A stretch of 64,000 bases of DNA from assembly GCF_036507355.1 (NCBI RefSeq), contig NZ_AP027877.1; one strand, 5' to 3'. A program made the position numbers and the translations under genes. This document shows, piece by piece, positions 26,051-33,599 of the stretch; positions within the stretch are counted from its first letter, which is position 1, and every line of letters starts with the position of its first letter. Below the pieces are notes generated by a model. That model saw only the letters and a program-made list of their open reading frames with translations. It made no database searches and was not told the origin of the DNA. Source of the stretch: Escherichia coli. Its GTDB lineage: Bacteria > Pseudomonadota > Gammaproteobacteria > Enterobacterales > Enterobacteriaceae.

Positions 26051-29269
<3,219 letters not shown>

Positions 29270-29284
29270 GGTAATGACTCCAAC

Positions 29285-29788
29285 TTACTGATAGTGTTTT
29301 ATGTTCAGATAATGCCCGATGACCTTGTCATGCAGCTCCACCGATTTTGAGAACGACAGTGACTTCCGTCCCAGCCTTGCCAGATGTTGTCTCAGATTCA
29401 GATTATGTCGCTCAATGCGCTGAGTGTAACGCTTGCTGATAACGTGCAGCTTTCCCTTCAGGCGTGATTCATACAGCGGCCAGCCATCCGTCATCCATAC
29501 CACGACCTCAAAGGCCGACAGCAGGCTCAGAAGACGCTCCAGTGTGGCCAGAGTGCGTTCACCGAAGACGTGCGCCACAACCGTCCTCCGTATCCTGTCA
29601 TACGCGTAAAACAGCCAGCGCTGACGTGATTTAGCACCGACGTAGCCCCACTGTTCGTCCATTTCAGCGCAGACAATCACATCACTGCCCGGTTGTATGC
29701 GCGAGGTTACCGACTGCGGCCTGAGTTTTTTAAGTGACGTAAAACCGTGTTGAGGCCAACGCCCATAATGCGTGCACTGGCGCGACAT
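29285..29788 (-). CDS. insB: IS1 InsB (transposase C-terminal part, expressed as InsAB' by -1 frameshift)
   Basis: 167 aa ...[54 protein letters not shown]...; A6C slippery motif (revcomp of gtttttt at 29725-29731). Confidence 0.9.
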
Positions 29789-29982
29789 CCGACGCCATTC
29801 ATGGCCATATCAATGATTTTCTGGTGCGTACCGGGCTGAGAGGTGGTGTAAGTGAACTGTAGTTGCCATGTTTTACGGCAATGAGAGCAGAGATAGCGCT
29901 GATGTCCGGCAGTGCTTTTGCCGTTACGCACCACGCCTTCAGTAGCGGAGCAGGAAGGACATCTGATGGAAATGGAAGCCAC
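29707..29982 (-). CDS. insA: IS1 InsA (transposition repressor)
   Basis: 91 aa [43 protein letters not shown]... matches InsA. Confidence 0.92.
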
Positions 29983-30037
29983 GCAAGCACCTTAAAATCA
30001 CCATCATACACTAAATCAGTAAGTTGGCAGCATTACC

Positions 30038-30320: not shown

Positions 30321-31022
30321 TTACGATTTACAGTTGAGTTGCGGCGTTTCCGCCCCGTAGTCATTGATGGTTCGATACGTTACGCTGCTATTTTTGGCAC
30401 CCTTTGGCAGAGAGAATTGGTATTTATCAAAGGGGGAAATCATTTGATTTTTAACTACCTTTCCACCTATTTTCAGGTCTGTCAGGGTAATGAAATAAGG
30501 TGTTGGGTTACTGACCGTAACCATGTCAGCTGACGAAGTGCAACGCAGTTTCGCCGGAGCCTCGCCTAAGGGATACGCTAAACCTTTTGGTCGCCAGAAA
30601 AGTTTGATGACGCTTTGTGTGGCAATCTTCAGGGTATTTCCCTCTTCCCGCTTCGTTGTTGAAGGGACTGCCCGTACGCTAGTGAAGAAAAGGGTTTCTC
30701 TGTCTTTCGCCAACGGCGCACCAATGTACATAATGCGTAACAGATTCTCATTAGCCGGATTCAGCACAAATAGCGGTGGTGTAATAATAAAGTCTGCTGA
30801 TTTTTTATTATCTGGGGTCATCACCCATGACTGAATAAGATAAGGAACATCCGGACTGGTGTTACGTACACCCAGTGAAATTTGCTCTTCACCTTCTGAA
30901 TAAACAAGACGTGTTGCTGCAAGTCCAATCCCGCCTTTACCTGCCGCCCATGCGGATGAGCAGCTGAGTAATATTGCCGTTAAACTTACGGTCACAATTC
31001 CCTTTGTTATGCAAGTTTTCAT
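30321..31022 (-). CDS. elfD: Fimbrial periplasmic chaperone ElfD (YcbR)
   Basis: 233 aa MKTCITKGIVTVSLTAILLSCSSAWA..., PapD-like chaperone motifs; matches ElfD/YcbR. Confidence 0.9.
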   Translation of the reverse strand: MKTCITKGIVTVSLTAILLSCSSAWAAGKGGIGLAATRLVYSEGEEQISLGVRNTSPDVPYLIQSWVMTPDNKKSADFIITPPLFVLNPANENLLRIMYIGAPLAKDRETLFFTSVRAVPSTTKREEGNTLKIATQSVIKLFWRPKGLAYPLGEAPAKLRCTSSADMVTVSNPTPYFITLTDLKIGGKVVKNQMISPFDKYQFSLPKGAKNSSVTYRTINDYGAETPQLNCKS

Positions 31023-31125
31023 AAATAGTCACTCTTAAAAAATATGAATATCCCCTCCAGAACACTGGAGGAGTACAAATTAATAAAACAATTAATGAGT
31101 TCTATTAATAGGTAATGACTCCAAC

Positions 31126-31629
31126 TTATTGATAGTGTTTTATGTTCAGATAATGCCCGATGACTTTGTCATGCAGCTCCACCGATTTTGAGAACGACAG
31201 CGACTTCCGTCCCAGCCGTGCCAGGTGCTGCCTCAGATTCAGGTTATGCCGCTCAATTCGCTGCGTATATCGCTTGCTGATTACGTGCAGCTTTCCCTTC
31301 AGGCGGGATTCATACAGCGGCCAGCCATCCGTCATCCATATCACCACGTCAAAGGGTGACAGCAGGCTCATAAGACGCCCCAGCGTCGCCATCGTGCGTT
31401 CACCGAATACGTGCGCAACAACCGTCTTCCGGAGCCTGTCATACGCGTAAAACAGCCAGCGCTGGCGCGATTTAGCCCCGACATAGCCCCACTGTTCGTC
31501 CATTTCCGCGCAGACGATGACGTCACTGCCCGGCTGTATGCGCGAGGTTACCGACTGCGGCCTGAGTTTTTTAAGTGACGTAAAATCGTGTTGAGGCCAA
31601 CGCCCATAATGCGGGCTGTTGCCCGGCAT
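31126..31629 (-). CDS. insB: IS1 InsB
   Basis: 167 aa, about 90% identical to the other copy; A6C motif (revcomp of gtttttt at 31576-31582). Confidence 0.9.
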
Positions 31630-31823
31630 CCAACGCCATTCATGGCCATATCAATGATTTTCTGGTGCGTACCGGGTTGAGAAGCGGTGTAAGTGAACTG
31701 CAGTTGCCATGTTTTACGGCAGTGAGAGCAGAGATAGCGCTGATGTCCGGCGGTGCTTTTGCCGTTACGCACCACCCCGTCAGTAGCTGAACAGGAGGGA
31801 CAGCTGATAGAAACAGAAGCCAC
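31548..31823 (-). CDS. insA: IS1 InsA
   Basis: 91 aa [43 protein letters not shown]... Confidence 0.92.
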
Positions 31824-32072
31824 TGGAGCACCTCAAAAACACCATCATACACTAAATCAGTAAGTTGGCAGCATCACCGAGTAATTCATTGATTCAACAT
31901 CTAATGACTATCCAATAAATAAATATGCGTGATATATAAAGCCCTTTCTTTAGTTTATTTTCAGAAAAAGATACACAAAATTTATATTTGGCATTTTCTT
32001 GTCTCTCCGACAGACTGAGCGAATTGTTATCAATGTTAACAAAACAAGAACAATTGGTTATAAGGAGAGAGT

Positions 32073-32647
32073 ATGCGTGTCATCACCCTGGCGGGTAGTC
32101 CTCGCTTTCCTTCTCGCTCCAGCTCCTTGCTGGAATATGCGCGGGAAAAACTAAATGGCCTGGATGTAGAGGTTTATCACTGGAATCTGCAAAACTTCGC
32201 CGCGGAAGATCTGCTTTATGCTCGTTTCGATAGTCCGGCACTCAATACCTTCACCGAACAGTTGCAACAGGCTGACGGGCTGATTGTCGCCACGCCTGTG
32301 TATAAAGCCGCTTATTCCGGTGCGCTGAAAACCCTGCTCGACCTGCTGCCAGAACGTGCGTTGCAAGGCAAAGTGGTGCTACCGCTGGCGACGGGCGGTA
32401 CGGTGGCCCATCTGCTGGCGGTCGATTATGCCCTTAAGCCAGTTTTAAGTGCGCTGAAAGCCCAGGAGATCCTGCACGGCGTGTTTGCGATGACTCACAA
32501 GTAATTGATTACCATCACAAACCCCAGTTCACGCCGAATTTACAAACCCGTCTTGATACCGCGCTAGAAACTTTCTGGCAGGCATTGCACCGCCGCGATG
32601 TTCAGGTTCCTGATCTTCATTCTCTGCGAGGTAATGCCCATGCGTAA
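32073..32647 (+). pseudogene. ssuE: NADPH-dependent FMN reductase SsuE, apparently frameshifted (truncated at codon 143)
   Basis: Frame from ATG 32073 stops at 32502-32504 (...HGVFAMTHK*); SsuE C-terminus [52 protein letters not shown] continues in the +2 frame to 32645-32647; consistent with a 1 bp deletion near 32485-32495. Confidence 0.7.
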
Positions 32648-33599
32648 CATCATTAAACTGGCGCTGGTGGGATTGCTTAGCGTCTCTACGATTGTGGTTG
32701 CTGCAGAATCCTCGCCTGAAGCGTTACGTATAGGCTATCAGAAAGGCAGTATTGGTATGGTATTGGCAAAAAGCCACCAGTTACTGGAAAAACGCTATCC
32801 GCAATCAAAAATCTCCTGGGTGGAGTTCCCCGCTGGCCCGCAAATGCTTGAGGCGTTAAACGTTGGCAGTATTGATCTCGGCAGTACCGGGGATATTCCG
32901 CCAATCTTCGCCCAGGCTGCCGGGGCTGATTTGCTGTACGTGGGCGTCGAGCCGCCGAAGCCAAAAGCCGAGGTGATTCTGGTGGCAGAAAACAGCCCGA
33001 TCAAAACCGTAGCCGATCTTAAAGGCCACAAAGTTGCGTTCCAGAAAGGTTCCAGTTCACACAATCTTTTACTGCGCGCACTACGCCAGGCCGGACTTAA
33101 GTTTCCTGACATCCAGCCCACTTATCTGACGCCAGCTGATGCCCGCGCCGCGTTCCAGCAAGGTAACGTTGACGCCTGGGCTATCTGGGATCCCTACTAC
33201 TCCGCTGCATTATTACAGGGCGGCGTGCGGGTGTTGAAAGACGGCACCGATCTCAATCAAACCGGATCGTTTTATCTGGCAGCTCGCCCCTATGCAGAAA
33301 AAAACGGCGCTTTTATTCAGGGTGTACTGGCAACCTTTAGTGAGGCCGATGCGTTAACCCGCAGCCAGCGCGAGCAAAGCATCGCTTTACTGGCAAAAAC
33401 GATGGGCTTACCGGCACCGGTGATTGCCTCTTACTTAGATCATCGCCCTCCTACCACCATCAAACCGGTTAATGCCGAGGTTGCCGCCTTACAGCAGCAA
33501 ACGGCAGATCTGTTTTATGAAAACCGTCTGGTGCCGAAAAAAGTCGATATTCGCCAACGCATCTGGCAGCCCACTCAACTGGAAGGAAAACAATTATGA
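32640..33599 (+). CDS. ssuA: Aliphatic sulfonate ABC transporter periplasmic binding protein
   Basis: 319 aa from [37 protein letters not shown]...; matches SsuA. Confidence 0.93.

Follow-up and report, generated by a model that had tools for sequence, protein, structure and literature searches.

The window, a 64,000-nt stretch of Escherichia coli DNA, is collinear with positions 965399-1028916 of the K-12 genome at 97 to 99% identity. It contains an intact IS1 element between the elf fimbrial operon and the sulfur-starvation operon ssuEADCB, in the following setting.

29270-30037, minus strand: second IS1, in elfC, same orientation, 91% identical to the first and of a different iso-form
30321-31022, minus strand: elfD, 233 aa, intact, now without elfA and the elfA promoter
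31105-31110, minus strand: elfA remnant, the last 6 nt (TAT TAA), placed by K-12 alignment
31111-31878, minus strand: intact IS1 (IS1A-type), 768 bp, recognized by terminal repeats, genes and Pfam domains
31126-31629, minus strand: insB' frame, 167 aa (Pfam DDE_Tnp_IS1, E-value 2e-78)
31548-31823, minus strand: insA, 91 aa (Pfam Zn_ribbon_InsA, 1e-21; HTH_Tnp_IS1, 5e-31)
31844-31871, minus strand: insA (IRL) promoter-like site CTGCCA-16-TATGAT from the consensus scan, reading into IS1
31879-32072, plus strand: retained proximal ssuE upstream region, K-12 -194 to -1, placed by alignment
32073-32647, plus strand: ssuE pseudogene (Pfam FMN_red) with a premature stop at 32502-32504

The element next to ssuE is IS1 by its length (about 768 bp), by its imperfect terminal inverted repeats of about 23 bp, and by its coding content, comprising insA and insB' frames with InsA and DDE_Tnp_IS1 domains (Pfam ids PF03811, PF12759, and PF03400) and, between them, the A6C frameshift motif AAAAAAC, read from the sequence on the minus strand at about 31567-31573. 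Pattern search recovered both IRL (GGTGATGCTGCCAACTTACTGAT, 31856-31878, minus strand) and IRR (GGTAATGACTCCAACTTATTGAT, 31111-31133) with 0 mismatches, at a chance expectation of 0.00 in 100 shuffles. It shares 100% identity with the IS1 copy at the same locus in E. coli WP5-S17-ESBL-10 and 99.9% with that in EC09, both annotated as “IS1-like element IS1A family transposase.” IRL faces ssuE, and the insA start codon lies 55 bp inside it. An earlier note on this DNA had placed the IS1 end carrying the insA promoter 194 bp before ssuE, and this distance is exact, as IRL ends at 31878 and the ssuE ATG begins at 32073. The promoter-like site and both IS1 genes are on the minus strand and thus point away from ssuE.

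Downstream of the junction, ssuA, ssuD, ssuC, and ssuB are full length on the plus strand and are followed by pepN on the minus strand; synteny beside pepN and identity to K-12 are preserved, and of the five ssu genes only ssuE is not intact. The same note had reported a frameshift in ssuE, which we can specify as one base missing after 32487, with a stop at 32502-32504 that leaves 143 aa instead of 191. This lesion would remove the FMN reductase and also uncouple translation of ssuA from that of ssuE: in K-12 ssuA begins 8 nt before ssuE ends, while here ssuE translation ends 136 nt before the ssuA start (32640), so that by these coordinates the coupling would be lost. The clear lesion of the ssu operon is thus the ssuE frameshift, not IS1.

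On the other side of IS1, the 6-nt elfA remnant is followed by the 82-bp elfA-elfD spacer and by elfD. The elf fimbrial operon is dead in this genome, with elfA and the elf promoter gone and elfC hit by the second IS1, which is flanked by an 8-bp target duplication (CAAAATTG). Three lesions can be counted in the operon (the elfA loss, the IS1 in elfC, and a further loss in elfC). The last of these lies at about 28060-28066, where approximately 192 bp of elfC (K-12 1000670-1000861) are missing and two BLAST segments overlap by 7 nt, an arrangement that suggests a deletion between short direct repeats. Elsewhere in the window, at about 45077-45087, approximately 173 bp of the K-12 gloC-aspC intergenic region (984310-984482) are absent, probably a REP or intergenic indel.

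The elf genes themselves appear as latecomers beside ssuE. Since ssuE directly adjoins a divergent pyrD in L020, an Escherichia genome with no elf operon at this place, and in 28 other Enterobacteriaceae, elfADCG-ycbUVF has on this comparison been inserted between the two genes, within the compared set in E. coli alone. Upstream of pyrD in L020, about 138 bp separate the ssuE ATG from the end of a PurR-box-like motif, GCAAACGTTTTC, which we interpret as the pyrD operator for PurR. Homology between K-12 and L020 on the pyrD side stops exactly after this motif, and there lies the pyrD-side boundary of elf.

The extent of the change at the ssuE-elfA boundary emerges from alignment with K-12, as the earlier note had proposed. 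Over 31879-32072, 191 of 194 positions are identical, and homology resumes at 31878/31879, where a single C can be assigned either to the IS1 tip or to the ssuE-side sequence. By base-by-base extension of the alignment, the ssuE-side homology stops at K-12 position -194/-195 from the ATG. The ssuE-elfA intergenic region of K-12 measures 355 bp, of which 194 bp are kept here, and the upstream region was thus rightly described as truncated. Homology on the left ends at position 10403 of the K-12 locus, in which the elfA coding sequence occupies 9869-10408. Between these two points 695 bp of K-12 (genome 997707/8-998401) are absent and IS1 stands in their place; the intergenic region has lost its distal 161 bp, and elfA, with a length of 540 bp, has lost 534.

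A simple IS1 insertion, by which upstream sites would be displaced and none removed, draws on nothing beyond the presence of the element. IS1 usually generates a target duplication of 8 or 9 bp (PMC12428005), and no such duplication is seen here, the flanks ...TTCTATTAATA and GAGTAATTC... being different. The missing stretch is common to K-12 and most E. coli genomes, and the left flank is formed by the final 6 nt of elfA. We rejected simple insertion as refuted by the K-12 alignment, leaving it a negligible probability. The missing duplication is accounted for by the 695-bp deletion, and it counts against simple insertion, not against the identity of the element as IS1.

Deletion is a known consequence of IS elements (PMC12428005), and we consider it likely that the structure is an IS1-made deletion scar and not a regulatory device. 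As an IS1-associated deletion beside a promoter it would be an ordinary event of a familiar type, and nothing here points to a new mechanism. Both the adjacent deletion promoted by IS1 and the deletion by recombination between two IS1 copies belong to the classical behavior of this element. The scar could have arisen by intramolecular IS1 transposition (the classical “adjacent deletion”), or two directly oriented IS1 copies may have landed in the AT-rich, IHF-site-bearing region and then recombined. An intermediate, in which the same IS1 would have a duplication at one junction or the other, was found in none of 5,426 complete E. coli genomes, and the two routes are for this reason indistinguishable. 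Functionally, the deletion would have cost the genome elfA and the elf promoter, plus some distal AT-rich architectural DNA.

What remains in front of ssuE is an ordinary E. coli sequence. The retained 194 bp are 98.5% identical to K-12 MG1655, with differences at 31992, 32019, and 32045, and 100% identical to at least 15 E. coli genomes; 533 records reach at least 99% identity, and the sequence is the common allele of many IS-free E. coli genomes. The ssuE control region was delimited by comparative sequence analysis, in which an SsuE scan with one genome per species yielded 80 loci, and 29 ssuE upstream regions were aligned. The following conserved features were obtained.

K-12 -125 to -105: conserved block TTATGCnnTTTTnnGGCA
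K-12 -95 to -82: conserved block GATAAATCATTTAG
K-12 -70 to -56: conserved block CTCTGnCAnACTG
K-12 -51 to -33: conserved block AATTGTTATCAATGTTA, containing a TGTTA-N7-TAACA palindrome of LysR-box type
Nearest the gene: conserved block ...GGTTATAAGGAG, the ribosome-binding site
32025-32041, plus strand: putative LysR-box-type palindrome TGTTA-N7-TAACA, kept in nearly all of the 29 aligned upstream regions

All the conserved blocks on the ssuE side fall between about -130 and -1, with approximately 60 bp to spare before the junction. As far as alignment and motif matches can tell, the retained 194 bp hold all the conserved upstream blocks, both candidate sigma-70 promoters described below, the ribosome-binding site, and one IHF consensus. 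The palindrome, 30 to 48 bp before the ssuE ATG, is downstream of either candidate promoter and has AATTGTT/AACAATT inverted repeats around it. A CysB or Cbl operator is conceivable, as is a leader structure. Searched against Rfam, 31000-32700 matched no family at E<=1.

The E. coli sequence from about -72 to -135 has only about 50% identity to Citrobacter and is strongly diverged from the enterobacterial consensus, which makes the cross-genus footprint an imperfect guide for E. coli. In sub-blocks of this segment we observe identities of about 32 to 67% to L020 and other genera, and from -60 to -1 an identity of about 97% to L020. The insertion of elf may have been accompanied by a remodeling of the ssu control region. 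Polymorphism within E. coli, with 4 variable sites in -303 to -1 among 9 alleles, is too sparse to serve as a footprint.

Two sigma-70 promoter candidates, A and B, were recognized within the retained region.

31960-31988, plus strand: promoter candidate A, TTCAGA-17-TATATT, 9 of 12 matches, from the consensus scan
31988-32016, plus strand: promoter candidate B, TTGGCA-17-CAGACT, from the cross-genus alignment

Candidate A is the sole plus-strand match of the consensus scan, and the hexamer aligned with its -10 loses the T at position 6 in three genera. The -10 of candidate B coincides with the third conserved block; in our reading of the alignment, almost every aligned genus keeps its A at position 2 and its T at position 6, the two that are diagnostic for a -10 hexamer, and the remaining positions vary. 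We lean toward candidate B on these grounds of conservation. Position 31992 (K-12 -81) is the site of a common A/C polymorphism in E. coli, which turns TTGGAA (K-12) into TTGGCA. The C allele, which improves the -35 of candidate B to 5 of 6 matches, is carried by the window and by strains EC09, HCP4S3_I4, TUM1881, and VE-V10-F. Among genome-wide start-site data, the Cappable-seq supplements gave no hit, and for b0937 those of Kim 2012 list orthologues only.

From the IS1 junction to the -35 hexamer, the distance is 81 bp for candidate A and 109 bp for candidate B, and a LysR-type activator would be expected in the 40 to 80 bp before either -35, which are retained. For full ssu expression, a Cbl site directly in front of the -35 region is reportedly required. 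Cbl-dependent sulfate-starvation control of initiation would most likely be preserved, since such an activator site adjoins the -35 region. The ssu region of K-12 is also said to bind IHF at three sites and CysB at three, reportedly without influence of these CysB and IHF sites on a chromosomal ssuE'-lacZ fusion; if these reports are right, the deletion can only have removed dispensable sites. At tauA, the Cbl site extends from about -112 to -68 from the start. If candidate A is real and the ssu site is tauA-like, its distal edge would lie a few base pairs from the IS1 junction. A profile of the conserved blocks (nhmmer, blocks 1 and 2) gave a nonsignificant match upstream of tauA (E=0.12), and in K-12 ssu it hit only a non-homologous place (E=0.5). 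Local alignment of ssu with tauA gave weak scores as well, and we do not take this unconvincing motif sharing as evidence.

The earlier note had further proposed that upstream sites of the ssu promoter might be displaced or replaced by IS1 sequence, that an IS1 end might create an outward hybrid promoter, and that ssu control might thus be rewired. Only a part of the first proposal stands: two IHF-like sites are deleted with IS1 in their place, and the conserved blocks and candidate promoters are kept. Rewired control is not indicated, given that the conserved blocks within about 130 bp of the ATG and the candidate promoters are all retained. The IHF-like matches concerned are as follows.

31882-31894, minus strand: perfect IHF consensus WATCAANNNNTTR (AATCAATGAATTA), a candidate site 3 bp from the IS1 tip
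K-12 -234 to -222, deleted: IHF-like match with one mismatch
K-12 -242 to -230, deleted: IHF-like match with one mismatch

When the 355-bp region is shuffled by dinucleotides, 11% of the shuffles contain a perfect match of this kind, and the one at 31882-31894 is thus only suggestive of a site. In the account that PMC11043490 gives of Gamas 1987 and Prentki 1987, IHF binds IS1 at both ends and also binds a hot spot of IS1 insertion. Such binding would offer a plausible reason for the arrival of IS1 here.

For a hybrid promoter at the junction, the best candidate is the following.

31865-31894, plus strand: weak hybrid promoter candidate, -35 TTGGCA with -10 ATTGAT or TTGATT

This reading holds that the outward-facing TTGGCA of IS1 (31865-31870), 8 bp inside the IRL tip, combines with the flank to drive a Cbl-independent transcript into ssuEADCB, and IS1 fusion promoters of this type are documented (Prentki et al. 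1986, as entered in Table 1 of PMC9330008). The composite scores 8 of 12 matches, with a spacer of 17 to 18 bp and the -10 at 31888-31894. Yet the hexamers found at 16 to 18 bp from TTGGCA (CATTGA, ATTGAT, and TTGATT) match the -10 consensus at only 2 to 3 of 6 positions. None of them combines an A at position 2 with a T at position 6, as would be expected of a functional -10; the best reaches 3 of 6 and lacks the A. The consensus scan also found no plus-strand promoter across the junction between IS1 and the ssuE-side sequence. We regard an outward promoter here as very improbable.

A subtler effect would be a quantitative one, in which ssu level or sulfate sensitivity is altered by the lost upstream architecture and the start site does not move. 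Besides the two IHF-like sites, CysB sites may have been lost, and probably also DNA bound by H-NS in common with the silent elf promoter; IS1 with its IHF-binding ends, now in place of that DNA, would change bending or H-NS occupancy. The deleted 161 bp are indeed 65 to 90% A+T and contain the two matches with one mismatch, and the IHF and CysB binding reported for K-12 ssu is in line with such a role. Also in its favor, each end of IS1 has an IHF site, and bgl is freed from H-NS silencing when IS1 inserts upstream of its promoter (PMC11043490). Against this, the whole ssuE control region fits in about 135 bp in other genera, and the ssu operon depends on an activator and is not silenced. The reported indifference of the chromosomal fusion to IHF and CysB in K-12 also argues against it. 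On balance we find such quantitative rewiring unlikely, though it keeps a better standing than a hybrid promoter.

The deletion scar, with ssu control most likely unaltered, is not a peculiarity of a single assembly. The 143-aa SsuE is identical to GenBank BED23017.1 (E. coli), and contigs of GCA_905398585.1 and SRR17480487 with the same ssuE allele start inside IS1 and show the identical junction, with 0 to 1 mismatch to the window in 3.7 kb. Because the same junction and the same frameshift recur in independent public assemblies, their combination is a lineage marker and not an assembly artefact. The exact junction of the window was found in one piece in none of the 5,426 complete E. coli genomes.

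In approximately 20 of these 5,426 genomes, an IS1 in the same orientation lies in or beside the ssuE-elfA intergenic region. Eight of these loci were examined in detail and are given below with positions relative to the ssuE ATG.

23AR1101: ssuE-proximal IS1 junction at +27, deletion into elf; promoter and ssuE start gone
EC09: ssuE-proximal IS1 junction at -80, deletion into elf
HCP4S3_I4: ssuE-proximal IS1 junction at -120, deletion into elf
TUM1881: ssuE-proximal IS1 junction at -227, deletion into elf
PEC389: IS1 at -238, simple insertion with a 9-bp duplication
2017.11.01CC: ssuE-proximal IS1 junction at -264, deletion into elf
VE-V10-F: IS1 at -278, simple insertion with a 9-bp duplication
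WP5-S17-ESBL-10: ssuE-proximal IS1 junction at -303, deletion into elf

Deletions of 0.6 to 4.2 kb into the elf operon are thus present at six of the eight loci, and the junction of the window at -194 is one more member of this recurrent series. The junctions at +27, -80, and -120 cut away conserved ssu promoter blocks, while the one at -194 does not. We dropped the label “hot spot” for IS1, as approximately 20 among 5,426 genomes does not clearly exceed what a naive estimate predicts, and speak of recurrence only.

A more ambitious reading would make the ssuE-elfA region a recurrent landing and deletion zone for IS1, brought about by IHF-bent, AT-rich DNA, with the elfA losses under selection and ssu expression changed; we give it only a slim chance. 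Repeated and independent elfA losses, with a stepwise erosion of the ssu upstream region in different lineages, might then reflect selection for loss of the ElfA fimbrial subunit or for altered ssu control. In the lineage of the window, the IS1 end, itself provided with an IHF site, might stand in for the lost upstream architecture or modify its function. Should the distal DNA matter, the natural IS1 end points from +27 to -303 would constitute a ready-made deletion series.

The IS1-made deletion scar, which we prefer, has little import beyond strain annotation: IS1 erodes a cryptic fimbrial operon and nears the core of a sulfur-starvation promoter without reaching it. Of wider use is the compactness of the conserved ssuE control region, whose approximately 130 bp provide a clear minimal promoter fragment for studies of ssu regulation.

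Compared with the ssuEADCB promoter of K-12, which is activated by Cbl and inducible by sulfate starvation, the locus keeps the gene order ssuE-A-D-C-B beside pepN, a proximal 194 bp with 98.5% identity, and intact ssuA to ssuB, and it differs by the absence of the distal 161 bp, by the frameshifted ssuE, and by three substitutions, including -81 A>C. With the known IS1 fusion promoters it shares the outward -35-like TTGGCA 8 bp from the IS1 tip, whereas it has no adequate -10, and the junction lies more than 80 bp upstream of the native candidates and does not overlap them. The activation of bgl by IS1 or IS5 (PMC11043490) offers a parallel in position, with IS1 standing in AT-rich, nucleoid-protein-binding DNA about 80 to 145 bp ahead of a promoter. 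However, bgl is H-NS silenced and activated by insertion, in contrast to the activator-dependent ssu, which gives no sign of silencing or activation. Apart from the lack of an intermediate among the 5,426 complete E. coli genomes, the locus has the features of the classical IS1 deletions: one intact IS1 left behind, flanking DNA lost on one side or both, no target duplication, and AT-rich end points, with at least six other E. coli genomes showing the same at this locus with other end points.
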